Assembly (NCBI RefSeq): GCF_000171235.2
Contig: NZ_ABEA03000006.1
Span: 14,344-38,343, forward strand
Direction of reading: 5' to 3'
DNA length: 24,000 nt
Origin: Geminisphaera colitermitum TAV2
GTDB lineage: Bacteria > Verrucomicrobiota > Verrucomicrobiia > Opitutales > Opitutaceae
Positions 9,984-24,000 of the stretch are shown here, in pieces (within the stretch, counting starts at the first letter, position 1; each line of letters starts with the position of its first letter). The notes under the pieces were generated by a model that saw nothing but the letters and a program-made list of their open reading frames with translations, had not been told where the DNA came from and searched no databases. A program made the translations under genes and the position numbers.

Positions 9984-10058
9984 GCCGATGTAGCTCAGTG
10001 GTAGAGCAGCGGTATCGTAAACCGCTGGTCGTCGGTTCGACTCCGACCATCGGCTCCA
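9984..10058 (+). tRNA. tRNA-Thr (anticodon CGU), CCA encoded
   Basis: Cloverleaf read by hand: acceptor GCCGATG/CATCGGC, D arm GCTC-AGTGGTA-GAGC, anticodon arm GCGGT-ATCGTAA-ACCGC (CGT), variable TGGTC, T arm GTCGG-TTCGACT-CCGAC, discriminator T, then CCA. Confidence 0.95.
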
Positions 10059-11284
10059 GTTTCGCAAAGCGATTCTTTGGGTTTTACGCTCATAATCTCC
10101 TGTAAGAAGCCATTTTGTGAAAGTTCGACTAATGAGGCACAAAGGGTGAGGAATTTTGATGTATCAGCAGTGCGCTCACTCGTGAGTGTGTCTTTCGCTG
10201 CTACATCGACGGGGTCTCCCAGCCACGGAAGTTTGATGATTTCCGAATGCAGGCCGATGGCGGGCATATCGGTGTAGATTTTCGCGGTCAGGTTCGCATC
10301 AGAATGTCCTAGAAACTCCTGCGCCGCCCGTTGGTTGATGCCTGCCCGGACGCCCATCGTCTGGAACGTCTTCCGAAAACTGTGAAAGGCGACGGTGCGG
10401 TTGAGTCCGTCGCGTTTCGGGATGCCGGCCGCTTTGATGTCCCGATCCAGCACGCGGAAATGGGGAAACTCCGGGAAAACTGGAGCGTCCGCCTTCGCAT
10501 CCTGCGGAGCGGCGGCGCGCAGCAATGCCGCCAGCCGGGGGTGCAACGGCAGGGGGCGCTTGGTCATGTCCTTTGTTGTTTCATCACGAACCAGCAAATA
10601 CGGCTGTTCTCCGGTCAGATGCAGGTCTCCCCATACCAGCGCCTGCGCCTCGCCCCTGCGGATGCCTGTATACGCAAGGAACCGATACAGGAGGCTGCGC
10701 GGGCCGCTCACCTCGAACAGGCGGGCGAGTTCTTCCGGGGTGAAAGCGCGGGTGTCGCGGACCTTTTGACCGCGAGTTTCGACATGGGGGACTTTGGCGA
10801 GGGGGTTGCGGGCGATGCGGTCCAGCCTCACCAGCCAGTTAAGGAAAATGCAGATGGATGCCTGATATTCGCGGACGGTTTTTGCCGCCAACTTGAGCGT
10901 GGAACGCCACTTTACAAACTGGTCTGCGCGGATGTCTGAAAGGCGTTTCCAGCCCGTTTCATTGAGGATTTTTTCGATGCAAAGGCGAGTAGTGCGAATA
11001 TGGCGCGGTGTGCGTTTGCGAGCCTGCAAATCGGCAACGAACTCGGTGAGCAAGGTGGTCAGCGGGAGGGCGGCGGTGTCGCGTTCGGTGCGCGGTGCAA
11101 TGATGCCCTCTTGCTCGCGCTGTTTTTCAACGATGATGTCGCGGAGCCGTTTGCGGGCAACGCGAACGTCGGGGGTGCCTAGGGCAACGGTGCGAGGTTT
11201 GTCGCCACGATTGAGGGCATAACGCCCGTAATACAGACGGGCGCGCTTGCCGTTGCGGAGGGGGCGGAAAACGTATTCGGTCAT
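9995..11284 (-). CDS. int: Tyrosine recombinase (phage integrase)
   Basis: Catalytic residues are readable: YTGIRRGE (Arg I), HSFRKTF (H-x-x-R), LGHSDANLTAKIYTD (His/Tyr). The N-terminal SAM-like domain has LTEFVADLQARKRTPRHI. The last ~21 codons are antisense to the tRNA. Confidence 0.9.
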   Translation of the reverse strand: MTEYVFRPLRNGKRARLYYGRYALNRGDKPRTVALGTPDVRVARKRLRDIIVEKQREQEGIIAPRTERDTAALPLTTLLTEFVADLQARKRTPRHIRTTRLCIEKILNETGWKRLSDIRADQFVKWRSTLKLAAKTVREYQASICIFLNWLVRLDRIARNPLAKVPHVETRGQKVRDTRAFTPEELARLFEVSGPRSLLYRFLAYTGIRRGEAQALVWGDLHLTGEQPYLLVRDETTKDMTKRPLPLHPRLAALLRAAAPQDAKADAPVFPEFPHFRVLDRDIKAAGIPKRDGLNRTVAFHSFRKTFQTMGVRAGINQRAAQEFLGHSDANLTAKIYTDMPAIGLHSEIIKLPWLGDPVDVAAKDTLTSERTADTSKFLTLCASLVELSQNGFLQEIMSVKPKESLCETGADGRSRTDDQRFTIPLLYH

Positions 11285-11285
11285 G

Positions 11286-11564
11286 TCAGCGCAGTTTGGT
11301 GAATTTGCCTTTGCTGTTCTCGATCCAGAACATCAAATCTTCCGCCCGGTATTGGTTGGAATTTCCGTGAAAACGGTAGTCACCAAAATCGTCAATCTGG
11401 CGGATGCGAAAGGCGCGGGGCTTGTTGTCGTCTCCTAAACCTTGGTAGTAGTATTTGGACGATTTCTTGATCGTCGCATAAAGGTCGAACGGACCTTTGC
11501 TAAAGCCAACAGGGGCGAGGTTGGCGGTTTCATCAACGGGGGGGAGTTCGGTTTGTGTGCTCAT
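11286..11564 (-). CDS. Hypothetical protein immediately upstream of int (possible excision/recombination directionality factor)
   Basis: 92 aa with plausible codon usage. The stop is 1 nt from the int start. No recognisable motif. Confidence 0.55.
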   Translation of the reverse strand: MSTQTELPPVDETANLAPVGFSKGPFDLYATIKKSSKYYYQGLGDDNKPRAFRIRQIDDFGDYRFHGNSNQYRAEDLMFWIENSKGKFTKLR

Positions 11565-11675
11565 TGCTTTGGTCGGGTTGTCTGGTCGGTATTTTTTTTT
11601 GGATACATTAAACCTCCCTCGCGCCGGGGCTTTGCCGACCAGAGCAAAGCACGCCGACGCGGGGAGGGTGAGTGG

Positions 11676-11975
11676 TCAGATTTCGCCGGGAGTGGGGGAT
11701 GCTTCGCCGGGTTTGGGGATTTGGGCGGCAACTTCGCCGGTGATGGGAAGGGCACGGCCAACGGGGCGGATTTGCAGGCCATGCACCTGCCAGCCTTGGG
11801 AATTGAGGGCGTTTTCGATGGAAACCATCGCGCTAAACAGTTCGGGCAACGAATGGGCGCGACGGTCGGAAATCGTGAAAAGAGGGATGAAACCACAAGG
11901 GCCAACTTCCTTGAGCACTACGGCAGGCTTTGGAGCCTTCTTGGTGGGTTTGGTTCGGGTAGGCGGGTTAGGCAT
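11676..11975 (-). CDS. Hypothetical small protein with Lys/Pro-rich N-terminus (candidate early regulator)
   Basis: 99 aa. Preferred over the overlapping 11561..11905 frame, which is Pro/Ser/Arg junk. Divergent from the RHH gene. N-terminal TKPTKKAPKP resembles the RHH protein tail TKAPKPTKKK. Confidence 0.55.
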   Translation of the reverse strand: MPNPPTRTKPTKKAPKPAVVLKEVGPCGFIPLFTISDRRAHSLPELFSAMVSIENALNSQGWQVHGLQIRPVGRALPITGEVAAQIPKPGEASPTPGEI

Positions 11976-12057
11976 AAGAATGCTTTGAGTCTAAACATCC
12001 TTGCCATGTCAACCTTTCTAACAGCGAAAAGATTGATAAACCTGCTATGATTGCTGC
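11976..12057. promoter_or_regulatory. Divergent regulatory (switch-like) region
   Basis: 82-bp AT-richer spacer between divergent genes. TATGAT (12046-12051) lies 6 nt before the ATG, suggesting a leaderless mRNA. Direct repeats TCTAAACA (11990-11997) and TCTAACA (12017-12023). Confidence 0.35.
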
Positions 12058-12363
12058 ATGGGAAAATCTAAAACTGCACAAATGCTTGGGGTTCATCTCG
12101 CTAACGACATTGTCGAAATGATCGAACGTCGTGCGTTGGTAATAGGCGTTACCAAGAGCCGTTTTGCGGCGATGGTATTCGAACACTGGCGGGCGGCAAA
12201 CTACCCGGCTATTTCCACCGTGGACAGCACGGCAAGGGCGATGGTTTTGCAGAGGATGAAAGAGGAAGCGGAAGGCTTCATTTCGGAGTCTGAGGCACAC
12301 GAGGCAAAGACCTCTGGTTCAAGGACGAAGGCTCCCAAGCCAACCAAGAAGAAAGCCGCATGA
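12058..12363 (+). CDS. Ribbon-helix-helix (CopG/Arc-like) DNA-binding protein, candidate repressor
   Basis: LGVHLANDIVEMIERRALVIGVTKSRFAAMVFEHW fits beta-strand-helix-helix. Basic KAPKPTKKKAA tail. This is the only plus-strand gene in the prophage. Confidence 0.6.
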   Translation: MGKSKTAQMLGVHLANDIVEMIERRALVIGVTKSRFAAMVFEHWRAANYPAISTVDSTARAMVLQRMKEEAEGFISESEAHEAKTSGSRTKAPKPTKKKAA

Positions 12364-12499
12364 TCCACGTCGATGCGAATCGTTGGCGAGAAGGCGCGGG
12401 CTGCGCGCAAACGCCGCCGCGCTACCGTTGCGGCTTATGCCTGAGTTGCCGTTACGCTAACCGGTCGGGTTGACAAGGCGGGGCAGGTGTGCCCTATTA

Positions 12500-12586
12500 G
12501 GGTCGTCTCCTAGGTCGGAAAGCGGTTAGGCCGTCAAGCTGGAGGGCGAAAGCCATCAGAGCCTCCGAATAGGAGACCCTTTTTTT
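12500..12586 (+). terminator. Large branched hairpin plus T7: intrinsic terminator, possibly the 3' end of a small RNA
   Basis: Basal stem gg-tc-gtctccta (12501-12512) / taggagaccc (12570-12579), followed by ttttttt. The interior has ggagg/cctcc and a gc-GAAA-gc tetraloop hairpin. Confidence 0.6.
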
Positions 12587-12591
12587 ACCCT

Positions 12592-13098
12592 TCAGTTTTT
12601 ATACATCGTTTGGAAAACGAGTTTTTTCCGCCCCACCCTTACCTCCTCGATTACGGTGGTTACTCCGCTGGCGTCTTTGTAAAGGTATTCGATGGCTTCG
12701 AGGCTCCGGTGCGTTTTCTTCTGCGATTTCCTGACCTTTTGGGCGTTTTTTAGATAGTAGGGGATGCGCAGGATGTCTGCGACTGTGACGGGGAGTTTGT
12801 CTTTCCCATGCTTGTTCAGGGCATGGTTCACTTCATCAATGGCCACGGCATGGGCCTTGTATCCGTTCAGGTTAAGGCCAGTGAGTCCAAATAGTCTTTG
12901 CGCCTCGCTTGGAGTGATCGGCATGTAATCGACAAAATCGTCCTTTTGCCGGGTTGGACGCGGGCCAAGATACCAGCGGCGCAACACGGATTCGGGGCGT
13001 GTCCACCAAAACCAAATGCCGCCGCAAATGGCGGCGGCGAGGGTGGCGAGGGTGGCGAGGATGGCGAGGATGGCGACAATGGGCGCGTGTTTGCTCAT
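12592..13098 (-). CDS. N-terminally membrane-anchored protein with BECR/PBECR-like (phage RNase-toxin-like) C-terminal domain
   Basis: Start at MSKHAPIVAILAILATLATLAAAICGGIWFWW (TM). The C-terminal AIDEVNHALNKHGKDKLPVTVADILRIPYYLKN...VTTVIEEVRVGRKKLVFQTMYKN resembles the H-x3-KHG...IP...EEVR.GRK.L...T.YK pattern I recall from PBECR domains of polyvalent phage proteins. Confidence 0.45.
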   Translation of the reverse strand: MSKHAPIVAILAILATLATLAAAICGGIWFWWTRPESVLRRWYLGPRPTRQKDDFVDYMPITPSEAQRLFGLTGLNLNGYKAHAVAIDEVNHALNKHGKDKLPVTVADILRIPYYLKNAQKVRKSQKKTHRSLEAIEYLYKDASGVTTVIEEVRVGRKKLVFQTMYKN

Positions 13099-13664
13099 GC
13101 GGAAGGGGCGGGTTTTGCGCGAGTGAGGAGGTGCCACGCAATGAAAAACGCCCCTGCCACGGCCACAAGCACGCCCGCAATCCAGAGACCAGCGGGCGAG
13201 GAAAGCAGGTGGCAGACAGCGGCTCCTAGTCCCGCGCAGACAGCCGCAAGCCAATGCGCACGCCAGGCGAGGAGACCGGCCAGCGCGAGGCACGCGAGGG
13301 CGGCGAAGGTGTAAATGAGCACGCGCTTCCCCGTTGCTTGTTCAGCCGGGGAGGGGGGAGTGAAGGCTTGCGGTGCCGTGGCAGTCTCCTTGCGTGTAGT
13401 GAGTTTTACACTACTGTCTTTCGGGAGCTTGGCCGTGAATGTCCCCAGTGTTTCCGAAAACGTGACTTCCGTTCCTGCCGGGAGCGTGAAAGACGCCTCG
13501 CCGGTTTCGGCGGATGCCGTGGCAGGTTTCACCGCATCTCCAGTCTGTGAAACGCGGACGCCCCCGGACCGCGCAACGGCAGACGGAGGCTTGGCTTTGT
13601 GTGCGGTCTGGCAGGCCGGGAAAACCGCAAGGCACGCAAAAAGAACGAAGAAACGGGCGTTCAC
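13095..13664 (-). CDS. Lipoprotein with C-terminal TM helices (unimolecular-spanin-like architecture)
   Basis: GTG start overlaps the upstream stop (GTGA). Signal plus lipobox FACLAVFPAC, a Thr/Ala/Pro-rich periplasmic part, and a hydrophobic C-terminus (VLIYTFAALACLALAGLLAW..., LWIAGVLVAVAGAFFIAW). Confidence 0.6.
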   Translation of the reverse strand: MNARFFVLFACLAVFPACQTAHKAKPPSAVARSGGVRVSQTGDAVKPATASAETGEASFTLPAGTEVTFSETLGTFTAKLPKDSSVKLTTRKETATAPQAFTPPSPAEQATGKRVLIYTFAALACLALAGLLAWRAHWLAAVCAGLGAAVCHLLSSPAGLWIAGVLVAVAGAFFIAWHLLTRAKPAPSA

Positions 13665-13906
13665 GGATGCTTTGTCGTTTGGCGAACCAAGTCCGTCAGA
13701 ATCGCACGTAATTCCTCGTTTTCTTCGGCGAGGTTATCACATTCGCGGCGGAGGGCGGCGGTGTATTCAGGGTCAATCGAGTGTGAGTCCGAGAAGGCGT
13801 AATCTTCACGGCTTTCCTGCGTGGAGCATCCCGAAAGGACTAAAAAACCTGTGACGAACAAGGCGAAGCCTCCGATGTAGGTGGCAATGGTTGTGATCGT
13901 TCTCAT
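13661..13906 (-). CDS. Small lipoprotein with coiled-coil tail (spanin-like)
   Basis: 81 aa. Lipobox FLVLSGC. C-terminal EYTAALRRECDNLAEENEELRAILTDL. ATGA overlap with the upstream gene. Confidence 0.6.
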   Translation of the reverse strand: MRTITTIATYIGGFALFVTGFLVLSGCSTQESREDYAFSDSHSIDPEYTAALRRECDNLAEENEELRAILTDLVRQTTKHP

Positions 13907-14079
13907 TGTGTATTGTTTTTTTGGTTACGGATTTCGCGCCATTTTTGGACGCACGAAAGAATCATGAAGGCGGCGGTGGCGAGCCCGGCGAGGATGGACG
14001 CCACCGTTGAAACGTCGGTTAGCGCGAAGTCCACCGACAGGCCAAGCAGGCCGATGCAGAGTTTGTCGGTTGTATTCAT
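13903..14079 (-). CDS. Holin-like small 2-TM protein
   Basis: 58 aa from the internal ATG: MNTTDKLCIGLLGLSVDFAL...VASILAGLATAAFMILSCV, then the charged tail QKWREIRNQKNNTQ. ATGA overlaps on both sides. Confidence 0.6.
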   Translation of the reverse strand: MNTTDKLCIGLLGLSVDFALTDVSTVASILAGLATAAFMILSCVQKWREIRNQKNNTQ

Positions 14080-14525
14080 TTTTTGGTTTTTGAGAGTTTT
14101 CCAATCAGCCAGAAAGCGATCAAACCGACTGGCAGGACGGCGAGCAGCGTAAGCCATGCGCTGGCACTGGAGGTTTTGCCGGTGAGCACGTAGTTGACGT
14201 AACTTTCGCAATTACGGGTCAACCAATTGAATTTGGGCGGGTTGGAAGCAAACGCGACTGCTCTTGCCTCCATTTCCGGCGTCAGAGCAACCCCTTGATT
14301 TTCCACGAGTTTTCTCCCGTTGAAAAATTGACTTGTGCTTTCTCGCACAAGTCCAGTTCGCCCAAACGAGATTATCGTGTCGCTTGCAAATTGGATGCCA
14401 CTGTGACGAAAAAATGGAACGGTCCGGGCCGTGGCACGGATTACATTTATTCGCTTCGCCTGTGTCGGCAGAGGCGGCAGTCCACACACGGAAACCTCCG
14501 CCTCTTTTGTGTCTGCGTTAGTCAT
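14076..14525 (-). CDS. LRAT/NlpC-P60-like (H-box/NC) hydrolase with C-terminal TM anchor, candidate endolysin
   Basis: Start at MTNADTKEAE (ATGA overlap). His box FFRHSGIQFASDTIISF and Cys box NWLTRNCESYVNYVLTGK match the LRAT-type His...NCE arrangement. C-terminal WLTLLAVLPVGLIAFWLIG. Confidence 0.55.
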   Translation of the reverse strand: MTNADTKEAEVSVCGLPPLPTQAKRINVIRATARTVPFFRHSGIQFASDTIISFGRTGLVRESTSQFFNGRKLVENQGVALTPEMEARAVAFASNPPKFNWLTRNCESYVNYVLTGKTSSASAWLTLLAVLPVGLIAFWLIGKLSKTKK

Positions 14526-14935
14526 TTTTTGAGCACTCCTTTTGCTTTGAGTGCGCCGTCGATGTAGGGTTTGAGGAGCGTCAAAACCCAGATGCCGAGG
14601 GCGGCAAAACCGAGGAATTTCAACCAGCCGGGAATGGAGTTCCAAAAACCTTTTCCAACGGTGTCGATTGCGGTGTTGATGCGGCCCGGAAGTTCGCTGG
14701 CGGATTCGGCAAGCGCGGAGGGAATGCGGTCATTGACGGCTTCGCCAACGGTTGCGGAGAGGTCCGCGGTATCCGTGATGGATGCCATTTGTCGCTGAAA
14801 TTCGTCTTCTGAAAGAAGACCGTCCGCCCGTTGACGTTCGAGAATCGCAGCCTGTTCAGCGGCAATTTTCTCCGTGCGTTCCCGCTCTTTTTTACTCGTG
14901 AAGAGCCAGCCTGAAAATGAGTCTAACCATCCCAT
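14522..14935 (-). CDS. Membrane protein with SHOCT-like motif and C-terminal TM
   Basis: Start at MGWLDSFSGWLF. RQRADGLLSEDEFQRQMASI resembles SHOCT. C-terminal WLKFLGFAALGIWVLTLL. Confidence 0.5.
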   Translation of the reverse strand: MGWLDSFSGWLFTSKKERERTEKIAAEQAAILERQRADGLLSEDEFQRQMASITDTADLSATVGEAVNDRIPSALAESASELPGRINTAIDTVGKGFWNSIPGWLKFLGFAALGIWVLTLLKPYIDGALKAKGVLKK

Positions 14936-14958
14936 TGTAGTTGTTTCCTGTTTTGTAG

Positions 14959-16086
14959 TTAGTTTACCAATACGCGCCCCCACGAAATGGCCCAGTCAAC
15001 GGTGAGGGCGTTGTCGCTGTCCTTAACCTGCGTCTGGTCGAATTTGATGCGCAGCATGGGCCAGATCGTGTCGTAATAAGACCAGCCGAGGGCCATGCAT
15101 TTGATGTCCGTGCGGTTGCCGTCGTTGAGCGTGAACTCGCTTCGCCAGACGCGACGGTAGGAGCCCGCAACGTAGGGAAGGCGGGTGGCTGTCTTGCGTG
15201 ACTTTGTCCCCCCCAAAGCGAAATTATTGGCGGTGTTTGGGAGCGCGAATGCTTCCTCGCTGTTGCCAAGGAAGGTTTCAAATTCGTATTTATTCGGCGA
15301 AATCTGCGACGGCCAGCCAAGGTTTTCGAGTTGCACCTGTCCGCCGCCACCGGTCCAGAACGGGCCGGGCATGGCAACGGGAGAGAGGGGGGAAAGTGCG
15401 ATGTAGAGGTTGAGCACAACCTTGAGTTGCTGGCCGGGGACAAGTGTAACGCCGCCACCTTCCAGCACGTCGCGGCCAAACAGCGAGTTTGACGACTGGT
15501 AATAGTTCCACGACCAGCCGACTTCATGGAGTGTGACTTGCGTGGTGACGGCGTTGAAAATGAAGGTGCGTTTGCGGACAAGCTGGTTGTCCACGATGTT
15601 AACGGTGTTGTCGTCTCCCCCGGTTCCGTAAACGTCCGTGCGCATGGTTTCGGCGGTGAGGCCGGTTTGGTTGACATACCAGATCGTGCCCTTTGCCGGG
15701 GCCGGGAGTTCACGGGCGATGTCCACGGAGGCCGTCACTGTGTCCGCCACGGCCTGAATGCGCATTTCCTCGCCGGTATCCAGTTTCAAAAGACGCCCGA
15801 CGTCCTCATTGCTGAAAAACGCGGCGCTGGCCTTCACGGTGTTGCCGGTCTGGGTGAACGCGATGTTGCCGGAGTCGCGGCGGGTGGGGGTTGTGCCGGT
15901 GCCGACGACGGCAGCGCGGATTACGTCGTCCCAATGGTAGTTTTCGACAAGCGCGTTGAGGCCGTTGTCGAGGATGAGGTTTTTCTTCCAAGGCTGGCGG
16001 AGTTCTTCCGTGCCGTCCGGGTTTAGAACGGAAATTTTGTAGCGGATGCCGATTTGTTGTTTTGTGCTGGTTGAAATTTTTCTCAT
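14959..16086 (-). CDS. Hypothetical virion protein, beta-rich (possible spike/receptor-binding)
   Basis: 375 aa, the largest late-operon ORF. No TM and no enzymatic motif. Gly/Thr/Asn/Val-rich strands. Sits at the distal end of the structural operon. Confidence 0.5.
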   Translation of the reverse strand: MRKISTSTKQQIGIRYKISVLNPDGTEELRQPWKKNLILDNGLNALVENYHWDDVIRAAVVGTGTTPTRRDSGNIAFTQTGNTVKASAAFFSNEDVGRLLKLDTGEEMRIQAVADTVTASVDIARELPAPAKGTIWYVNQTGLTAETMRTDVYGTGGDDNTVNIVDNQLVRKRTFIFNAVTTQVTLHEVGWSWNYYQSSNSLFGRDVLEGGGVTLVPGQQLKVVLNLYIALSPLSPVAMPGPFWTGGGGQVQLENLGWPSQISPNKYEFETFLGNSEEAFALPNTANNFALGGTKSRKTATRLPYVAGSYRRVWRSEFTLNDGNRTDIKCMALGWSYYDTIWPMLRIKFDQTQVKDSDNALTVDWAISWGRVLVN

Positions 16087-16112
16087 GGTGCGAATGTGTA
16101 TCTAAAAAATGG

Positions 16113-16667
16113 TTACGCGTGGGGACCGTAGGCAAAAGCGTCAAGCGCAACGTCCGCCTTGGTGGTGTTGGCGGCGGCGATGTGCCCGGATGGGGTCAAT
16201 GATGCGGCGGACATGGCGACGGCTTGCGTGGCGTGTTCTTCGCCGGTTGCAGTCAGGGCCGGTTCGTAAAGGAGCGCGTCAAGACCGAGGGTTTGCGTGG
16301 CGTTTTTCGACAATGTCGGGCCGGTGGCAGGCTCGTAAGTCCATGCGGCAAGTCCAACGTTTTGCGAGGGGGTTTCAATCGGGGAGACAACAGCGGCGCG
16401 TTCATACAGTCCCCAGCACACGGCGCGGATGCCGGTGCCGCCAAAGCTGCGAATGCTGCCGTCCGCCATGCCGCGCACAACAGGTTCCATCTCCATGTCT
16501 TCCGTCGCGTCTTCGTTGCTGTCGATGCGCGTTACGGGGACATACAGGAGCGCATCGAGCGCGGCGGAGAGTTTCGCGGTTTCGCTCGCAAACGGCACGC
16601 GCCAGCCACGCCGCACATAGAGGAGCGGCGTGGGGATGCACTGGATTTGCGGGCGGGCGAAGATCAC
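16113..16667 (-). CDS. Hypothetical virion-associated protein with three LDA(L/F)xYxP repeats
   Basis: 184 aa with a GTG start. Repeats AKLSAALDALLYVPV, TQTLGLDALLYEPAL and KADVALDAFAYGPHA. Confidence 0.5.
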   Translation of the reverse strand: MIFARPQIQCIPTPLLYVRRGWRVPFASETAKLSAALDALLYVPVTRIDSNEDATEDMEMEPVVRGMADGSIRSFGGTGIRAVCWGLYERAAVVSPIETPSQNVGLAAWTYEPATGPTLSKNATQTLGLDALLYEPALTATGEEHATQAVAMSAASLTPSGHIAAANTTKADVALDAFAYGPHA

Positions 16668-16688
16668 GACGGAGGCGCGGTGTAGTGA

Positions 16689-16955
16689 TTACTTGGTGAC
16701 GGGTTTCGCGGCGGCGAGCGCGGCGGCAATGCCCTTGAGCGCGGCCACGTTGTCCGCTCCCAACGCGGCGGCAAGGTCTTCGCCGGTAATGGGGATCGGT
16801 TCGGATTGCGGAGCCCCCTGCGGACGCACGGCGGTTCCGTTTTCGAGCGCGTCAACCAGCTTGCCGATTTGCGCGGGGATGCTGTTGAGGACATTCACCG
16901 CTTGCGCGGCGAGTTGGGCGGCGGCGATGGCCGGAGTGATGTTTGCCTTAATCAT
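16689..16955 (-). CDS. Small Ala-rich helical protein (scaffold/assembly-like)
   Basis: ATG at 16955 preferred over TTG at 16985. MIKANITPAIAAAQLAAQAVNVLNSIPAQIGKLVDALE...AALKGIAAALAAAKPVTK. Confidence 0.5.
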   Translation of the reverse strand: MIKANITPAIAAAQLAAQAVNVLNSIPAQIGKLVDALENGTAVRPQGAPQSEPIPITGEDLAAALGADNVAALKGIAAALAAAKPVTK

Positions 16956-16994
16956 TATTTTGCTTTTGTTGTAGTTATTAACCAAATACTAAAA

Positions 16995-17684
16995 TCAGTA
17001 GAGGGGGCTAATAATGCCGTATTCGGCGAGCCGATCTGTAAGCGTGTTTACGCGGTCAATGACTTGGCTAAGCGGGGCATCGCTAGGAAGCTTGCTCAAC
17101 GTAAGGGGATTAGCTTCGGATTGAATGTCGAGGATTGCTTCCCCAAATATATTTACCACGCTCAGTCCCCCCAACAGCGTCGTAGGGCCATCGACGGAAA
17201 GCGGGGCAAAGACTTCTAAGTCAGATCGGATGGCTACGGGTGACAAAATATTCAAGAAATACTCCCCCCACTCTGCGACATAACCGCCCTCAGAGTTGTA
17301 GAGTATGCGGTTAGTCCAATCAATTGCCCCGACTGCGTATGCATCGTAGGCTATCCGTTCTTGCCAGTTGATCGCGACGACGTACCCGCTCAAATCGTAC
17401 AGTTCGCGCGTCCAGTGCCCGGCAGAGCGGATTCCCTCTCCGTCTGTCAGGTCCATTTGCCAGAGCGGAACAATCCCGTTCGAGCAGAGGACATTCCCCG
17501 GTTGACCGACCCCCATATCGTCCGTGGCGTCAAGGAACGGATTGCGCGGGGCGAAGTCTCCCAACAGCGTCGCAAGGGAGGCGCGGTTTCCACCGGGCGT
17601 GCCGGGGCGGGCGATTTCCACGCAATCGTCACCGGACAGGTCGAACAATTCCGGCAGATCAAAAATGGTTTTGTAGGATGGCAT
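16995..17684 (-). CDS. Fibre/receptor-binding-like protein
   Basis: 229 aa. The N-terminal FDLPELFDLSGDDCVEIARPG and C-terminal IDRVNTLTDRLAEYGIISP resemble the ends I associate with phage fibre or spike proteins. That is pattern memory only. Confidence 0.45.
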   Translation of the reverse strand: MPSYKTIFDLPELFDLSGDDCVEIARPGTPGGNRASLATLLGDFAPRNPFLDATDDMGVGQPGNVLCSNGIVPLWQMDLTDGEGIRSAGHWTRELYDLSGYVVAINWQERIAYDAYAVGAIDWTNRILYNSEGGYVAEWGEYFLNILSPVAIRSDLEVFAPLSVDGPTTLLGGLSVVNIFGEAILDIQSEANPLTLSKLPSDAPLSQVIDRVNTLTDRLAEYGIISPLY

Positions 17685-17694
17685 TGGTGCGAGT

Positions 17695-18285
17695 TTATGC
17701 GGTCCACCAGATTTCCGAAATCGTAGCGGCGAGGGGGGCGGTCTGCGGGTTGTGGATGCGGACGAATCCGCTCACGTGGTGCGTGATCGTCTCGTTGGCT
17801 CTCACAATGCCGGTTACGCCGTCGCTGGCGTCACGAAATTCCAGATACAGTTCGTTGCTCGTGTTGCTCACAACGACGGCCTTGCGACGCAGCAATGTGT
17901 TTTTGGGCGTGCCGAGCAAATCGACAAAACCGTTCGGCTGAATGATGACACTGCCACCGTTGGACGGGGCGAGCATTTCCGTGGGGGCTTCGATCTGGTC
18001 AAGCCGGTTGTCGGAGAACTTCACCACCCCGGCCCAAAATGAGACGAACATTTCTTTCTTCGTCGGGGAACGAAATTCGAGGCGCTCAAAAAACTCCGGG
18101 GCATCGAAGTCCAGACTCATTCCGCTTCGGAAAGTGGAATAAGGCATTGCGTCGATTTTGATTTCAACCGGGCCGGACGCGGAGAGTAGCGAGAAGTGAC
18201 GGCCATGCACCATTGCCACGCCGACTTGTCCCGGACCAGCGGGGATGACGACGTTTACGATGCTGCCTTGCTGGGAGGTTATCAT
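17695..18285 (-). CDS. Beta-rich hypothetical virion protein (possible vertex/penton, single jelly-roll)
   Basis: 196 aa. Alternating hydrophobic strands (HFSLLSASGPVEIKID, FERLEFRS, MFVSFWAGVVKF, VVVSNTSNELYLEFRD, FVRIHN). Directly follows the membrane-protein genes. Confidence 0.45.
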   Translation of the reverse strand: MITSQQGSIVNVVIPAGPGQVGVAMVHGRHFSLLSASGPVEIKIDAMPYSTFRSGMSLDFDAPEFFERLEFRSPTKKEMFVSFWAGVVKFSDNRLDQIEAPTEMLAPSNGGSVIIQPNGFVDLLGTPKNTLLRRKAVVVSNTSNELYLEFRDASDGVTGIVRANETITHHVSGFVRIHNPQTAPLAATISEIWWTA

Positions 18286-18289
18286 GGCT

Positions 18290-19105
18290 TTATTTGTGTT
18301 TCAGGAGGGCGAGGGCGATGAGGCCGGCAATGACCGCGCCAACGATCAGCTTGGTCTGAGTGGAGGTGTTTCCTTCATCTGCTGCGCCGATGGCGGTTCC
18401 CGCGCTCGTGATTGCGCTTTCAGCCGCATTGATGGACTGGTTTGAGGTCTGCCGTGCGAGGTTGATGTTTTCCAGCGAGGCGATGTGCATTTTGTCCATC
18501 GCGCCCATGACGCCTTGCAGGGCCGTGTCCATGACTTGCATGTTGGAACCGACTGCGAGGTTCATTGCCCGGTCTTGGAATCCCAGCGCGGTTCCAGCCA
18601 GTTCCATGTTTGAGCCAATGGCCGTGTTGAACATGTCTTTGCCGACTGCGAGCGCATCGGTGCCGAAACTTAGCGCGTCCCGGCCAAAATTCATCGCCTC
18701 TAGGGTGGTGGCGAGGTTGCCCCCGATGGCAGTGTTGGCGATGTCCTTTGTTGCCTCCATCGCGGACTGGTTGACCTTCGTGTTTTCCGTCAACGCGGTC
18801 AGCGAGGTCAGCAAGGAGCCTTCCATCGCGCTCTCCGTGAGTGTTCCGAGTTGTGAGGCGGAATCCCCGGCAAACTTGAACGCGGCGTCAACGGTGCCGT
18901 GGTCAGTGCTGGTGGTGACAATGCTGGTTGAAATGGTGTTGTTGTTTCCAACTTTGCCAGTGATTGCGCCGCTGTTGTCGTTGAGCGACTGGTCAACGGT
19001 GTTGCGCGAACCGGAGCCAATGCCAACGCCTTGATCCTGCACGGTTGCGCTTTGATCGTATGCCTTGGTGCCTGATTCTACTTTTGTGCTTCCGAAAAGT
19101 CCCAT
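18290..19105 (-). CDS. Tail-anchored membrane protein with internal ~23-aa repeats
   Basis: Start at MGLFGSTKVE (ATG 19105, 1 nt after the upstream stop). Repeats NTAIGGNLATTLEAM / NTAIGSNMELAGTAL / NLAVGSNMQVMDTAL. C-terminal TM KLIVGAVIAGLIALALL. Confidence 0.6.
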   Translation of the reverse strand: MGLFGSTKVESGTKAYDQSATVQDQGVGIGSGSRNTVDQSLNDNSGAITGKVGNNNTISTSIVTTSTDHGTVDAAFKFAGDSASQLGTLTESAMEGSLLTSLTALTENTKVNQSAMEATKDIANTAIGGNLATTLEAMNFGRDALSFGTDALAVGKDMFNTAIGSNMELAGTALGFQDRAMNLAVGSNMQVMDTALQGVMGAMDKMHIASLENINLARQTSNQSINAAESAITSAGTAIGAADEGNTSTQTKLIVGAVIAGLIALALLKHK

Positions 19106-19106
19106 G

Positions 19107-19490
19107 TTATTTCCTCCGTTTTTTCCCGAAAATGAAACTGGCGAGCCCAAACGTGAACAGCATGAGCGCGAGCCCGCCGCCAACGATGAAGGCCCATGTA
19201 GTGCCAGACCAACTACTGACCGGTTGCGACACTGCCGCCAACGCCGCTTGCAGTGGTTTCTCTTGTGACGCGTTGGAAGAAGCGCCGTCTTTCGCAACGG
19301 ATGCCACCGCATCGGCAGAGCCGCTTGCGGAAACGTCCCGTTGCGTCGAAGAACTGGACGTTGAGATGTCTCCAGACCAACCCCCGTTCACGATTTTGGG
19401 CGAAAAGATAATCGTGCCTGAATTGCTCGTTGGCCCGACTGTCGTGTTTGATGCGAGGCTGTTGCTTCCGGCGATGTCTAGCCAACTCAT
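19107..19490 (-). CDS. Tail-anchored membrane protein, Ser/Thr-rich ectodomain
   Basis: Start at MSWLDIAG (ATG 19490, 4 nt after the upstream stop). C-terminal TWAFIVGGGLALMLFTFGLASFIFGKKRRK. Confidence 0.6.
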   Translation of the reverse strand: MSWLDIAGSNSLASNTTVGPTSNSGTIIFSPKIVNGGWSGDISTSSSSTQRDVSASGSADAVASVAKDGASSNASQEKPLQAALAAVSQPVSSWSGTTWAFIVGGGLALMLFTFGLASFIFGKKRRK

Positions 19491-19494
19491 AGCG

Positions 19495-19782
19495 TTAACG
19501 ACGTTTGAAAATGAGCACGGCCCCGACAACGGCCAGAATCACGCCACCAGCGGCGGCGGCGATTTTCCAGATGGTGTTGCTCGTTTGTGTTTTCGTCCCG
19601 GTGCCACCAGCGGCATTGCCAACGGCTCCGGCAGTGGTTGCGGCCTGTTCTGCCAGCTTTTGCGCGGCGGCGGCCTTGGCCTGCGCTTCCGCCAGCTTTT
19701 CGGCCACTTTCGCCTGGCCGTAAGCGGTAGCCATTTCTTTGCCGCTGTCGAAAAGTCCCCCGACAAAATCTCCAAAGTCCAT
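19495..19782 (-). CDS. Tail-anchored membrane protein, Ala-rich helical
   Basis: 95 aa. AEKLAEAQAKAAAAQKLAEQAA helix, then TM IWKIAAAAGGVILAVVGAVLIFKRR. Confidence 0.65.
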   Translation of the reverse strand: MDFGDFVGGLFDSGKEMATAYGQAKVAEKLAEAQAKAAAAQKLAEQAATTAGAVGNAAGGTGTKTQTSNTIWKIAAAAGGVILAVVGAVLIFKRR

Positions 19783-19876
19783 GTGTGTTTTTCCAGTTTA
19801 ACCCGCGCCATTTTTAGAGAACGGCGCGGGTGCTATGTTGTTGTTGTATTGGACCGGATGATACCGGTGTCGAAGG

Positions 19877-20758
19877 TCAGTAGCTGCCTTGAAGCGATTC
19901 GTTCAGGATCGTGACGGCCCCGGCTGTCGGTGAATGGATGCGGACGTTAAGCGAGCGACGGCCAATGATGGCATCGGCGGTTCCGTATTCATCGAAGGGG
20001 ATGGGGAACGTCCACACGCTGGCGGACATGTTGAGATCAGCCAACGCAAGGGCGTTGGTCTCCGCGTCCACGTCGAAATAGGACACGTCGTCGGCGAGCA
20101 CTTCCACGCGGTTGATTGCGCTGCCGTCCTGTTTTTGGAGAAACAGGCGGTTGATGGGCTGGTTGAGCGGCAGGGTGGTGAAGTTGTAAACGCCAGCCGA
20201 AATCGGCTGAGTGAACGTGGTCTGATGCATGATCGACTGGAGGAACGATCCGCCTTCCGGGATGGAGGGACTGCCAATCCAGTTGTCCACGCCGTTGATG
20301 CGGTAAGGAATGTTCCAGTCGTGCGCCTCGTAAGCCGTGATTGTGAGACCAGCGGCCTGCGCAGGCGTGAGGACTCCGGCGCGCACAAACATCTGAATTT
20401 CAAACGAGCGGACAAGCGCGGCGGGAGTGGGCCATGCGCCACGATACATCTGTTGCGGCGTTTCCTGCCACGGCTCCACAAAGTAAATGGGAATTTCGTC
20501 GTCGGCGACGGTCAGGTTGTTGAAGCGGGCGAGATTGCGCAGGATGGTGGCATCAACTTCGCGGACCGCCGCACCGTTGATGTTGATTTTGATTTCACCG
20601 ATAAGCTGTTCGACGGTGACGGGATTGGCGACGTCGGCGGGAATGCCAATTTTGTATTTCGCCCAGTGGTAGCGCGGCCCAACGGTCATTTTGGTATAGC
20701 AGAATGCGCCGGGGACGGGACTCGTGATGCCCGCAACGGGCTGTTTGATTGTCGGCAT
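19877..20758 (-). CDS. Candidate major capsid protein, two tandem beta-rich halves (double-jelly-roll-like, PM2 P2-size)
   Basis: 293 aa with no TM. The two halves share a pattern: IGEIKININGAAVREVDATILRNLARFNNL / INRVEVLADDVSYFDVDAETNALALADLNM, IPIYFVEPW / WTFPIPFDEY, and SFEIQMFVRAG / SLNVRIHSPTAG. Confidence 0.55.
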   Translation of the reverse strand: MPTIKQPVAGITSPVPGAFCYTKMTVGPRYHWAKYKIGIPADVANPVTVEQLIGEIKININGAAVREVDATILRNLARFNNLTVADDEIPIYFVEPWQETPQQMYRGAWPTPAALVRSFEIQMFVRAGVLTPAQAAGLTITAYEAHDWNIPYRINGVDNWIGSPSIPEGGSFLQSIMHQTTFTQPISAGVYNFTTLPLNQPINRLFLQKQDGSAINRVEVLADDVSYFDVDAETNALALADLNMSASVWTFPIPFDEYGTADAIIGRRSLNVRIHSPTAGAVTILNESLQGSY

Positions 20759-20806
20759 GGTAGTTGTTTCGGTTGTGTGTTGTAGCGTTTTTCCGATACA
20801 GACGGA

Positions 20807-20941
20807 TTAGGCGGATGCGGCGGCTTTGCTGCCAGTCACGGCTTTTCCAACAGCGGGGACGCGGTTGATGAGGAACAAACCGACGATCACGCCAACGGCG
20901 GCGGTCACGACGGGAATCACGTAAACGAGGAGTTTCTTCAT
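20807..20941 (-). CDS. Small single-TM protein, first gene of the late operon
   Basis: 44 aa from the internal ATG: MKKLLVYVIPVVTAAVGVIVGLFLINRVPAVGKAVTGSKAAASA. Confidence 0.55.
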   Translation of the reverse strand: MKKLLVYVIPVVTAAVGVIVGLFLINRVPAVGKAVTGSKAAASA

Positions 20942-21048
20942 GTCAGTTTTGTGTGTTAATGTTTTTGTATTTGTCTTTCCGATACGTCCTGTAATATCCA
21001 CCCGTTTTTACACAAAAAAAAGCCCTCTGGTTGTCGCCCTTTGCCGTT

Positions 21049-21097
21049 CGATGCTGCCCGATGTCGAAGGATGTCGCGCGATGTCGGAGAATGCTGG
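21049..21097. promoter_or_regulatory. Five 10-bp-phased repeats (ATGCTG, ATGTCG x3, ATGCTG): candidate operator/activator array for the late operon
   Basis: The hexamers start at 21051, 21061, 21071, 21081 and 21091. The array lies between a minus-strand terminator and the late-operon start. Confidence 0.5.
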
Positions 21098-21108
21098 TGG
21101 TTGGACGT

Positions 21109-21137
21109 AAAAAAGCCCCGACGTTTCAGGCCGGGGC
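21109..21137 (-). terminator. Intrinsic terminator ending the upstream (early/middle) operon
   Basis: On the minus strand: gccccg-(11 nt loop)-cggggc followed by tttttt. The 6-bp stem is all G:C. Confidence 0.45.
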
Positions 21138-21202
21138 GGGTTATATGTGTATTCTGTTTTTGGCTACCTTGGCGTTCTATAAACGAACGCCCATTCCCAG
21201 AA

Positions 21203-21400
21203 CTAGGTGTTACGCTGACGCGCTACGATCTCACTAATCTGCCGACCTATTGCCTTGGATCGGAGACGGTGGTTCAGATATTGTTCTCGCTGCACATGGT
21301 ACATCCCTGTGCGCAAAAGGCGTCTCCGCATTGCGCCATGCATGGCGGCGCACGACACGTAGACCACCTCGTCCCCATATATTGGTATTGGTTTTTTCAT
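21203..21400 (-). CDS. Small basic hypothetical protein
   Basis: 65 aa, ATG 24 nt after the upstream stop, followed by the terminator. Lower GC than its neighbours. No motif. Confidence 0.4.
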   Translation of the reverse strand: MKKPIPIYGDEVVYVSCAAMHGAMRRRLLRTGMYHVQREQYLNHRLRSKAIGRQISEIVARQRNT

Positions 21401-21424
21401 CGTGAAATTGCGTAACCAGCCGCG

Positions 21425-21709
21425 TCACCGAATGCCTCCGGCATCGGTGCGCTCGGTGTTCAGAGGAGGGATAATCATGAGTCCGCCGCAATCGGCGCAT
21501 TCGTAGATCTCGCCATCGGCATCCGCGACTTCGTGATCTTCGGCCACTCGATAGCGGCCAGCGTCATCCGAGGTTGCGCCGCAATCGGCGCACCGCGCAT
21601 TTCCGGGGATGTGCTCACCCGGTGCCGGGATATATGCCCGGTGATAATTATCGCGCAGCCAACCCTCAGAACCAGCCGGTTGCGCCAATGTCTCATTGTC
21701 ATTCGCCAT
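21425..21709 (-). CDS. Zn-ribbon protein (two CADCG knuckles), candidate transcription factor
   Basis: 94 aa. NARCADCGATSDD...(27 aa)...YECADCGGLM. Confidence 0.55.
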   Translation of the reverse strand: MANDNETLAQPAGSEGWLRDNYHRAYIPAPGEHIPGNARCADCGATSDDAGRYRVAEDHEVADADGEIYECADCGGLMIIPPLNTERTDAGGIR

Positions 21710-21971
21710 GTCGCACCTCCGGGTTAGACCTGTTTTTTTGGCCGACTGAAAAGCCGGTCATCCATGCTTCACGAAGCAGGCCAGAATCGAACTCCACTGG
21801 GGGCACCGTGTTTCCGCGCTCGCCGTCATAAACACCAAGGTCGAAAGCGATGTGTTCTTGCTCAGTGTGTCCGCAATCAGGGGGACAACCTCCGAGGTCG
21901 GGAATGTGCGCCGGTCTAACCAGAGCGCAGGAGGCAACGGGCGGTGCCGTAGTTGTGGTTTCGATACTCAT
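21699..21971 (-). CDS. Hypothetical small Cys/His-containing protein
   Basis: 90 aa. GGCPPDCGHTEQEH. 11-nt overlap with the downstream gene. Confidence 0.5.
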   Translation of the reverse strand: MSIETTTTAPPVASCALVRPAHIPDLGGCPPDCGHTEQEHIAFDLGVYDGERGNTVPPVEFDSGLLREAWMTGFSVGQKNRSNPEVRHGE

Positions 21972-22014
21972 AATTTCCGTGCCTCCTCTGAGGTGTTGGG
22001 CGGACCAAGTGTTT

Positions 22015-22536
22015 TCATAGTTTTAGTTTTCGTTTCACAATCGGAGAACCGGGGACGTAATGAAGGAACTCGTAGCTTTTTGCCGGGAGGTGTTGGGCGG
22101 CGAGCAAGCCGTTTTCCATGAAGGTCTCAGCCCAAAGCTCCGCCCCTTTTGCTGGTTGGCGGAAAAGGAAAACTTCGGTGAGGTTTTGGCGCATACCGGG
22201 CAGTAAATCGGTGGCGGAATGGCAAAGGACGTAGAGCAAATGCCCGTTGTGCCGGATGCGCGTAAAGAGCCATGACAGCGAGCGATCCCGGTCAATCGTG
22301 GCGGATGCGTCTTCGATCCATACGCAACAATTCCGCGAGCGTTCCACACTCAGGCAAAACCGGTCTTTGTCGTTTGTGACAAAGGAGCCTCGCGGCCATG
22401 CGTTGGTTTCAATTTGAGGATCGAAAACGATGTGCCGCCGCCCTTGCAAAACGGTAATCGCCCCCGCGAGTGAATGCGCGAGGGTGGATTTGCCGCACTC
22501 GGAAGGCCCGGCTATGGCAACGCGAACACTGGCCAT
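22015..22536 (-). CDS. Small P-loop NTPase, candidate genome-packaging ATPase
   Basis: 173 aa. Walker A AIAGPSECGKST, Walker B NCCVWIEDAS. Far too short for a large terminase. Start overlaps the upstream stop (TAATG). Confidence 0.6.
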   Translation of the reverse strand: MASVRVAIAGPSECGKSTLAHSLAGAITVLQGRRHIVFDPQIETNAWPRGSFVTNDKDRFCLSVERSRNCCVWIEDASATIDRDRSLSWLFTRIRHNGHLLYVLCHSATDLLPGMRQNLTEVFLFRQPAKGAELWAETFMENGLLAAQHLPAKSYEFLHYVPGSPIVKRKLKL

Positions 22537-22808
22537 TATTCGGCCCTCCCTTCCGGTTTTGGGGCGGTGTTTTCAGCGTTTAAGATGTGAGGCAGTTGGG
22601 GTCGATAGCTCAGCAAAATGACGATGAAAATGAGGACTAAAACCAGTTTTACCGGGGACCAAGGACCGGGCAAGCAGGCCCAAAAGAGGAAACTGCCTCC
22701 GGCCAAAACCGCGAGCGGATAAAACGTGCAAAGCAGCGTGTAAACGAGCCCGGTAAGCCCGCCAAAGCGGAGAGTGTTATGGGCGTGGAGATTGATGATT
22801 GCATTCAT
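22536..22808 (-). CDS. Small polytopic membrane protein
   Basis: 90 aa with three hydrophobic segments (GLVYTLLCTFYPLAVLAGGSFLFWACL, VKLVLVLIFIVILL). Confidence 0.6.
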   Translation of the reverse strand: MNAIINLHAHNTLRFGGLTGLVYTLLCTFYPLAVLAGGSFLFWACLPGPWSPVKLVLVLIFIVILLSYRPQLPHILNAENTAPKPEGRAE

Positions 22809-22849
22809 TGTGTATTGTATTTTTGGTTACGTGTTGCGGTTGATTGCGG

Positions 22850-23779
22850 TCAAAAAACGGGATTTCCGGTGTTGCGGAACTGGGCCGGGACTTCCGGTGT
22901 GCGCGGCGCGTGTTCGGAAGGAACCGCAACCGGGGATGAGGAAGGGTCCACATGCGGCGTCGCGGGTGTCGCGGTGGCGGTATTTGCGGAAACGGTGCGG
23001 GGGGGGGCGGCGGCGGCAACCGGTTTGGGCTTTTTACCAAACCAGCTTTTCCACCAGCTTGCCAGTTTCGCCGACACACCCGGTTTTTGCGCGGTTGTCT
23101 CCACGTAAAGCCCCCAAAGCATGAGGAGCAAAACCAGCCCGGTTGCGACCCAACCTTTGCGCATGAGGTAAGCGGAGGTGCCGTCAACGAGCGCCTTGTG
23201 TTCCGCTGGTGTGGGGGTGGTTTCTTCCGGGTGTCCTGTGACAAAACCAAGTCCGGCATACGTGAGGCGGCAGACGGATTCAGCGGTTTTTTTTGCCGCA
23301 AGTTCCCGCGCTTCCGGTGTCTGCCCGTCGTCTGTTTTGCCCGGTTCCGTGCCAGAGGCCGTTTCTGTGGCGGTTTCCCCCGGTTCCTGTCCGGGGGCGG
23401 CTCCATTTCCTTTTGGGATAAACAGGTCGCTTTCCGGTGCAGAAACGGTGGTTTGTGCGGTTGTTTGCGCGGGAGAACCGCCCGCGTTTGCGGTGTCCCC
23501 GGTTTTGCGGGGGCGTCCGCCTTTCTGGTTTTTCCACCGTCCGATTTTATCTTTTTCCGGGCGGAATTTTTTGGGGTCAAACTTCCGCCCCAAGCTGTCC
23601 AGTTCGTCCAAGCGGTGGGCGCTTGCCTCGCTTTGTTCACTGGCACCGGTCGGAGCGGAAGAAACGGGTTTGCCGTCAACGGTAGTGGTCGCTTTGGGAG
23701 CACGTGCCAGCGCATCCGCGGCGAGGTTCGTGGCGTCCGTTATAACGGGCGGTTTTGTGTTTTCGGTTTCGATGTCCAT
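22850..23779 (-). CDS. Low-complexity Thr/Ala/Pro/Gly-rich protein with one TM helix
   Basis: 309 aa. Chosen over the two overlapping Arg/Pro-rich frames. Basic segment GRKFDPKKFRPEKDKIGRWKNQKGGRPRK. TM GWVATGLVLLLMLWGLYV. Confidence 0.55.
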   Translation of the reverse strand: MDIETENTKPPVITDATNLAADALARAPKATTTVDGKPVSSAPTGASEQSEASAHRLDELDSLGRKFDPKKFRPEKDKIGRWKNQKGGRPRKTGDTANAGGSPAQTTAQTTVSAPESDLFIPKGNGAAPGQEPGETATETASGTEPGKTDDGQTPEARELAAKKTAESVCRLTYAGLGFVTGHPEETTPTPAEHKALVDGTSAYLMRKGWVATGLVLLLMLWGLYVETTAQKPGVSAKLASWWKSWFGKKPKPVAAAAPPRTVSANTATATPATPHVDPSSSPVAVPSEHAPRTPEVPAQFRNTGNPVF

Positions 23780-23794
23780 AGGTGGAAAAATGGG

Positions 23795-23941
23795 TTAGGG
23801 GAAAAGCGGCGAATTGGCCTTGATGAGCATGAATGCGCTTTCAGCACGCATCCCTTGGCGACGGTAACGGCGGTAACGCTGTATCCGTTTGTATCGGCGT
23901 TTTAATTCACTGCGTTGCTCTCGAATTTCGGCGGTTTTCAT
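23795..23941 (-). CDS. Possible 48-aa Arg-rich protein (not in the ORF track)
   Basis: Read by hand on the minus strand: MKTAEIREQRSELKRRYKRIQRYRRYRRQGMRAESAFMLIKANSPLFP. The stop is 15 nt before the next ATG. Confidence 0.3.
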   Translation of the reverse strand: MKTAEIREQRSELKRRYKRIQRYRRYRRQGMRAESAFMLIKANSPLFP

Positions 23942-24000
23942 GGTCAAAATGGGCAGTTAAACCCCGCACATCCCCTCACATTCGTTACCAAACATTTCCA

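Follow-up and report, generated by a model that had tools for sequence, protein, structure and literature searches.

The gene at positions 19877-20758 of a 24,000-nucleotide stretch of DNA from Geminisphaera colitermitum TAV2 (this whole stretch is called the window hereafter) very probably encodes the major capsid protein (MCP) of a temperate, tailless phage with an internal membrane, which is integrated at a tRNA-Thr gene and belongs to the PM2 type (Vinavirales). This assignment is predicted from sequence profiles, a structural model and the gene neighbourhood. G. colitermitum is a member of the Opitutaceae (Verrucomicrobia) from the termite gut. The predicted product of 293 amino acids (aa) has 100% the same sequence as WP_043582136.1 of this species, for which RefSeq gives the name "hypothetical protein". 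An initial annotation of this DNA, made from the sequence alone, had proposed a vertical double jelly-roll MCP with an internal tandem duplication, and profiles, predicted fold and gene context support this proposal. The open reading frame (ORF) of 293 aa is present at exactly the position that had been claimed. The strand had been left unstated; the gene lies on the minus strand, and stops are abundant in the plus-strand translation of the same positions.

Homology of the 293-aa protein to PM2 P2

When 1.84 billion representatives were searched in full with HMMER, 117 relatives of the protein were found, most of them 265-285 aa long and matching end to end, with 34% identity for the best. Among 5.8 billion clusters the protein is alone in its own 90%-identity cluster. 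When the single sequence was compared to Pfam, matches to P2_C (E=2.2e-5, 24.8 bits) and P2_N (E=2.1e-3, 18.2 bits) were obtained and no others; the precomputed annotation of the protein in the sequence collection lists PF25513. An alignment of 49 sequences, consisting of the query and 48 relatives, was used for family-based comparisons, and P2_C was found in 47 and P2_N in 44 of its members. With the family profile, the PDB entry 9t9v ("Double jelly roll capsid protein") was reached with E=1.2e-20 and PM2 P2 (2vvf/2w0c) with E=3.4e-18, the latter over the whole length (positions 1-262). A profile search had been suggested as a check on the initial annotation, and these E-values of 1e-18 to 1e-20 bear it out. 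Aligned to PM2 P2 alone by hhalign, the family gave a probability of 98.6% (E=4.8e-16). These sequence comparisons show that the protein is homologous to PM2 P2 over its whole length. The length of PM2 P2 had been given as about 270 aa, and it is 269 aa. In a word-indexed protein search, the single sequence retrieved no protein other than itself, and the alignment retrieved one relative in addition; single-protein scans of genome contigs and viral contigs found nothing.

The AlphaFold2 model that was calculated from the family alignment has a predicted local distance difference test score (pLDDT) of 94.9 and a predicted template modelling score (pTM) of 0.90. It adopts a double jelly roll, the fold that had been expected, and its top match among PDB structures in Foldseek was PM2 P2 (2vvf_A, E=1e-18, TM-score 0.77/0.84). 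All 50 Foldseek matches listed are double jelly-roll virus capsid structures, with PBCV-1, STIV, PRD1/PR772, iridovirus and EhV-201 following PM2 P2. The protein had been described as free of transmembrane (TM) segments and of helices. A TM-segment scan agreed with the former; the latter was not quite right, as the model contains one helix of about 10 residues in each half and three short ones. DSSP placed the two longer helices at residues 70-79 and 232-241, each between a strand pair and the next strand, and the three others are 4-6 residues long. A helix after a strand pair in each jelly roll is typical of double jelly-roll capsid proteins.

Of the 48 relatives, more than 80% lack an insertion of 11 residues (VDNWIGSPSIP, residues 157-167). 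The inserted residues are in the linker hairpin that joins the two jelly rolls, where the confidence of the model is lowest (pLDDT 73-84).

The two halves are duplicated jelly rolls

The initial annotation had quoted six peptides as three pairs of repeated blocks. All six are present and collinear, starting at residues 53/215, 89/249 and 118/269, which corresponds to offsets of 162, 160 and 151. Compared as single sequences, the halves were not more similar than expected by chance (Smith-Waterman score 26 versus 28 +/- 5 for shuffles, z about -0.4); identity within the blocks is below 20%, with about 5/30 in block 1 by hand count. For a comparison at the level of the family, the alignment was split at residue 165/166 and the profiles of both halves were aligned by hhalign. 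This yielded a probability of 94.2% (E=1.1e-7, score 47.3, 109 columns), whereas scores were 15.8 for the reversed control and 5.4-13.4 for 30 column shuffles. It follows that the duplication is real, although family information is needed to detect it.

The profile alignment pairs IGEIKININGAAVREVDATILRNLARFNNL with INRVEVLADDVSYFDVDAETNALALADLNM, IPIYFVE with FPIPFDE and SFEIQMFVRAG with SLNVRIHSPTA, which is exactly the register of the three blocks that had been proposed. In the model these blocks are located on equivalent elements: strand-strand-helix 53-79 corresponds to 217-241, strand 88-92 to 251-254 and strand 119-125 to 270-276. The tandem duplication with the same motif order was thus borne out by family profiles and structural equivalence in the same register, and the self-similarity that had been set as a check is significant at the profile level, not in the single sequence. 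The results show that the two halves are consecutive beta jelly rolls with a detectable common origin.

The capsid gene is part of a prophage at tRNA-Thr

The left border of a prophage is marked by the tRNA-Thr gene, an integrase gene and a shift in GC content at 10 kb, with about 0.65 before and about 0.57 after this point (Table 1). The Rfam scan of the window found this tRNA only. From tRNA-Thr to the window end, the minus strand carries nearly all ORFs taken as genes. A second copy of the tRNA end (attR) was not found in the window; therefore, the element extends past position 24000 and measures at least 13.9 kb (10058-24000). A 47-mer taken from the end of the window had no exact match among the genome contigs, and the contig index has no entry for the capsid protein. 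What the initial annotation had missed is that the element is integrated at a tRNA gene as a prophage and that prophages of this type had already been described in Verrucomicrobia (PMC9502842).

Vinavirales prophages in Verrucomicrobia were described by Yutin et al. 2022 (PMC9502842). File S3 of that study annotates contig NZ_ABEA03000188 of G. colitermitum as a prophage with the capsid protein WP_157837245 (PMC9502842); it is referred to here as the sister prophage. WP_043582136 was not present in the searched supplementary files of PMC9502842. A third capsid paralogue of G. colitermitum is WP_043582288 (281 aa), and the three PM2-type capsid proteins of the species show a mutual identity of 27-31%. 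The prophage in the window is a divergent, previously unannotated member of the published Verrucomicrobia Vinavirales group.

Homologues of the capsid protein had been expected in viral contexts, and they were indeed found in small virus-like gene clusters beside a P9-type ATPase. The closest relative, MDR1279500.1 of an Opitutaceae metagenome-assembled genome (MAG), is encoded on a contig of 18.6 kb (L001). Synteny of this contig with the window extends from the ORF-h-like gene through the 375-aa gene, and a related integrase is present on it as well. Two more distant relatives are encoded on metagenome contigs of 14-16 kb that have kept the local gene order. One of these, L007 (14,478 bp), begins and ends with the same 29 bp. 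This terminal repeat suggests, but does not prove, that a member of the wider family has a circular genome of about 14.4 kb. The other contains a gene for a 651-aa protein with a faint match to Pfam Rep_1.

Table 1. Features of the prophage and its tRNA border, given in window positions.
Position	Strand	Feature	Evidence
9984-10058	plus	tRNA-Thr(CGT), probable integration site, left prophage border	ARAGORN; Rfam tRNA 70.6 bits
9995-11284	minus	Tyrosine integrase, full length, 3' end overlapping the tRNA gene	PF00589 E=2e-15; 46% identity to L001 integrase
14959-16086	minus	375-aa all-beta protein, tail-fibre-like, candidate receptor-binding protein	phrog_4176 'tail fiber protein' E=3.7e-23
17695-18285	minus	196-aa protein, 'cons_s / P1_spike' family homologue, candidate vertex (penton) protein	
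18290-19105	minus	~271-aa membrane protein, C-terminal TM, homologous to PM2 P10 (gp j)	
19107-19529	minus	140-aa protein, C-terminal TM residues 111-135	BLASTP to L001 8999-9388 E=1.7e-7
19495-19782	minus	95-aa membrane protein, C-terminal TM residues 70-94, 'cons_o' family, PM2 P3 position	
19877-20758	minus	Capsid gene, ATG-initiated, 293 codons; predicted major capsid protein, PM2 P2-type vertical double jelly roll	WP_043582136.1
20807-20941	minus	44-aa single-TM protein, PM2 P7 position	ATG at 20941; TM-like segment
21115-21137	minus	Terminator-like GC hairpin and T run, upstream of P7-like/capsid block	8-bp stem, 7 GC pairs, then TTTTTT
22015-22536	minus	Candidate genome-packaging ATPase, 173 aa, PM2 P9 family	Walker A GPSECGKST; Walker B-like VWIED
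22536-22808	minus	90-aa multi-TM protein, directly upstream of ATPase	TM-like windows
22850-23779	minus	309-aa protein, one TM-like segment, ORF-h / PRD1 P10-like assembly factor by position	BLASTP to L001 5042-5860 E=1.2e-5

The capsid module follows the gene order of PM2

In the direction of transcription, the genes for the 309-aa protein, the 90-aa protein and the 173-aa ATPase are followed by about 1 kb with small ORFs and the hairpin, then by the gene for the 44-aa protein and the capsid gene. Downstream of the latter are genes for three C-terminally TM-anchored proteins, then for proteins of 196, 229, 98, 184 and 375 aa, and for small membrane proteins. In PM2 the order is gp h, P9, P7, P2, P3, P4, P8, gp j (P10) and P1, and in the sister prophage it is cons_a4, unnamed, ATP, small hypothetical, MCP, cons_o, unnamed, cons_r (P10) and cons_s (P1_spike) (PMC9502842). 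The comparison shows that the capsid gene sits in the PM2 order, with the genes for the ORF-h-like protein (by position), the ATPase and a small TM protein upstream of it and those for membrane proteins, the P10-like protein and the candidate vertex protein downstream. Small membrane-protein genes had been noted on both sides of the capsid gene, and TM-like segments are present in the neighbours on either side. No promoter resembling the sigma-70 type was found close to the capsid gene.

The ATPase of the window matched phrog_2666 with E=2.8e-4, and the same profile was matched by its orthologues beside related capsid genes in L001 and L005 (2.3e-11 and 1.2e-20) and by PM2 P9 (2.6e-50); BLASTP to published Vinavirales 'ATP' proteins gave E=5e-17 and 9e-17. 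A role of the 309-aa protein as an ORF-h / PRD1 P10-like assembly factor is weakly supported: in the sister prophage its position is held by the 'cons_a4' ORF-h homologue, and phmmer found no direct match to PM2 gp h. A gene for 80-94 aa occupies the position of the 90-aa gene in the sister prophage, L007 and L008. The position of the 44-aa gene is taken by genes for 44 aa and 41 aa in L001 and L008, and by one of 132 nt (about 43 aa) in the sister prophage.

Downstream of the capsid gene, the 95-aa protein is 41% identical to CP007053_22, a cons_o protein (BLASTP, E=7e-6). The protein of about 271 aa matched PM2 gp j in phmmer (E=1.5e-5 in a 20-protein database) and phrog_34313 with E=0.014; its L001 orthologue and PM2 gp j itself match that profile with 3.3e-8 and 1.1e-10. 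When all window genes were compared to the PM2 proteins by phmmer, gp j (P10) was the only one to be convincingly linked. Homologues of P5, P15 and P16 were not seen by pairwise comparison with PM2 proteins, which is a weak test. Translation of the P10-like gene probably starts at the internal ATG at 19105 rather than at the mechanical ORF start at 19312; the former fits the end of the upstream gene at 19107 and the alignment to L001, which begins at residue 62.

The region between the ATPase gene and the P7-like gene (20942-22014) spans about 1.07 kb, compared to about 0.27 kb in the sister prophage, and contains small minus-strand ORFs and the strong terminator-like hairpin (21137-21115). 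One of these (21425-21709, minus strand) encodes zinc-ribbon-like CxxC...CxxC motifs.

Vertex and fibre-like proteins

BLASTP of the 196-aa protein gave E=4e-32 and 5e-32 with 34-36% identity to CP007053_25 and NZ_ABEA03000188_21, both of which are labelled cons_s / P1_spike (PMC9502842 File S3). No direct signal to PM2 P1 was obtained for it in a low-powered hhalign comparison. Judged by the published annotation and this BLAST link, the 196-aa cons_s protein is the most likely penton.

The AlphaFold2 model of the 375-aa protein (pLDDT 94.2) was compared to BFVD with Foldseek, and predicted tail fibres of tailed phages were matched with E=4e-23 to 1e-12 and TM-scores up to 0.70; for those of Stenotrophomonas and Xanthomonas phages, E was 5e-17 to 4e-13. 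Foldseek against the PDB gave no convincing match for this model. An orthologue with 52% identity is encoded at the same place in L001. More than 150 homologues were found, mostly metagenome sequences, and those with an organism name all come from Opitutaceae genomes or MAGs. It seems that a tailed-phage-type receptor-binding module is used by a tailless phage. The 375-aa protein was also considered as a PM2 P1-type spike, and this was rejected: it matches phrog_4176 as opposed to phrog_24031 for PM2 P1, its fold has no PDB match to P1, and hhalign to PM2 P1 gave 0.6%.

G. colitermitum encodes three fibre-like paralogues that are 51-54% identical. Together with the 27-31% identity of the capsid proteins, this suggests up to three divergent Vinavirales prophages in the species with a common host-recognition gene that is more conserved. 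One of the fibre-like paralogues is named 'uL14 family ribosomal protein' in RefSeq, and the 375-aa protein of the window has a weak match to Pfam Ribosomal_L14 (E=0.012, 16 bits, cut-off 23.6). The ribosomal name looks like a mis-annotation.

Other genes of the prophage

The minus-strand gene at 14076-14645 encodes a protein of at most 189 aa that has a TM segment at its C-terminus and a weak match of the LRAT / NlpC-P60-like type (PF04970, E=0.021). By eye, 'RHSGIQF...' looks like the His box and 'NCESYV' like the Cys motif of the LRAT / NlpC-P60-like superfamily. It is possible that the product is a lysis or lipid-modifying enzyme, in a group that has been reported to be without a known lysin. 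Near the integrase end, the product of the minus-strand gene at 12592-13293 carries a PBECR3 nuclease domain at its C-terminus (PF18812, E=9.8e-12, above the cut-off) as well as a TM-like segment, and it may be toxin or defence cargo.

Comparison with known systems

With PM2 P2 (Corticoviridae, Pseudoalteromonas phage; 2VVF/2W0C; PF18628 and PF25513) the window protein shares a compact vertical double jelly roll of about 270-290 aa, and the gene neighbourhood of ATPase, small TM protein, capsid protein and membrane proteins is common to both phages. In contrast, identity is about 15% in the Foldseek alignment, and the window protein is 24 residues longer and has the lineage-specific insertion of 11 residues at 157-167. 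The host is a Verrucomicrobium and not a gammaproteobacterium as in PM2, and an integrated prophage of at least 13.9 kb compares with a lytic genome of 10 kb. The element is not assigned to Corticoviridae sensu stricto (PM2), which are characterised by a circular genome of about 10 kb with the P12 rolling-circle Rep, the P5 lysin and the P15/P16 regulators, and its replication region lies beyond position 24000.

The published Verrucomicrobia Vinavirales, namely the sister prophage and CP007053 of Opitutaceae TAV5 (PMC9502842), share the host family with the window element, in the case of the sister even the genome. Gene order is the same, and the ATPase, cons_s and cons_o proteins are clearly homologous. 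The capsid proteins of window and sister are only about 28-31% identical, and the sequence between ATPase and P7-like gene is extended in the window.

PDB 9T9V, although distant in sequence, is the best sequence-profile match in the PDB. It is possibly the GP19 capsid protein of vibriophage NO16 (PMC13552765), a link that is unconfirmed since the code is absent from the main text of that paper. In NO16, the penton base GP14 carries trimeric GP13 spikes (PMC13552765). PRD1 P3, STIV B345 and PBCV-1 Vp54 belong to the same fold class (Foldseek E=1e-8 to 1e-11), but the listed chains are longer, at about 320-435 residues, reach TM-scores of only 0.55-0.65 and gave no sequence signal in the searches that were run.

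Discussion

The assignment as an MCP has to be weighed against several points. Both Pfam scores of the single sequence, 24.8 for P2_C and 18.2 for P2_N, are just under the gathering score of 25. In addition, phmmer of the single protein against PDB sequences found no match, tblastn against 50,697 phage records found none, and pairwise similarity to PM2 P2 is not detectable by phmmer. Because there is no direct match to the PDB, to phage records or to PM2 P2 as a pair, the capsid assignment rests on profiles and the predicted structure. The right border of the prophage and its replication module are located outside the window, and the phage is so far predicted from its genes. Finally, the Verrucomicrobia-associated elements, which were described as being without known lysins and regulators, might be inactive (PMC9502842).

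Three other explanations were considered. The apparent repeat could be a chance likeness of two beta-rich halves without a true duplication, as would fit the single-sequence self-alignment that is no better than shuffles and the block identity below 20% by hand count. Against this, the profile-profile score of 47.3 compares with 5-16 for reversed and shuffled controls, the register of the profiles matches the structural equivalence in the AlphaFold2 model, and Foldseek identifies the fold as a double jelly roll, which makes a chance repeat highly improbable. Still harder to credit is a cellular double jelly-roll-like protein, for example a relative of carbohydrate-active enzymes, in place of a virion protein. 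Cellular homologues of double jelly-roll capsid proteins have been reported (PMC8812541), and the RefSeq label 'hypothetical' would be compatible with such an origin. However, the fold matches listed, all 50 of them, are viral capsid structures with PM2 P2 first, Pfam matches are limited to P2_N and P2_C, and a P9-type ATPase, a P10-like protein, a P1-family protein and an integrase are encoded in the neighbourhood.

The explanation that deserves more weight, even if it is unlikely, is that the capsid protein is a genuine double jelly-roll protein but the prophage is cryptic or decaying, so that virions are no longer made and the gene is a relic. This possibility was raised for the Verrucomicrobia-associated Vinavirales, which have no known lysin and no P15/P16/TR_Z1 regulators (PMC9502842). 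No lysin family was found among the window proteins in Pfam and PHROG scans either, and the gap between ATPase and P7-like gene, which measures about 1.07 kb here and about 0.27 kb in the sister prophage and holds extra small ORFs and the hairpin, points in the same direction. On the other hand, the core genes are all uninterrupted, of expected length and tightly packed, the integrase is full length, and the capsid protein can be aligned end to end with its relatives and is modelled with a pLDDT of 94.9. Moreover, related contigs of 14-16 kb exist, one of them with the terminal repeat that suggests a circular genome.

If 19877-20758 encodes the MCP of a PM2-type phage, as is favoured here, the assembly of its virion may be pictured from what is known of PM2, PRD1 and NO16. 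Three copies of the capsid protein would form a pseudo-hexagonal trimer, and the trimers would tile an icosahedral shell over a protein-rich lipid vesicle that contains the small TM proteins encoded nearby. The five-fold vertices would be closed by the 196-aa P1-family protein, the 375-aa fibre-like protein would recognise and bind the host, and the P9-type ATPase would load the DNA genome.

Knowledge of double jelly-roll viruses as such is unchanged by this finding. It gives a predicted function to the RefSeq "hypothetical protein" WP_043582136.1, and a PM2-like prophage that is absent from the 2022 Vinavirales census is now marked out. The protein is a clear case of an ancient jelly-roll duplication that can still be traced by sequence profiles, and a single termite-gut Verrucomicrobium holds up to three very divergent tailless-phage capsid genes. 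Tentatively, the prophage could represent an Opitutaceae-specific lineage of Vinavirales, distinct at the family level, with a composite vertex made of a short P1-family penton and a tail-fibre receptor-binding protein of the tailed-phage type. If this were true, the identity of 27-31% between the capsid paralogues versus 51-54% between the fibre paralogues would suggest exchange or homogenisation of host-recognition modules, and such exchange would take place among co-resident tailless prophages and across virus realms.

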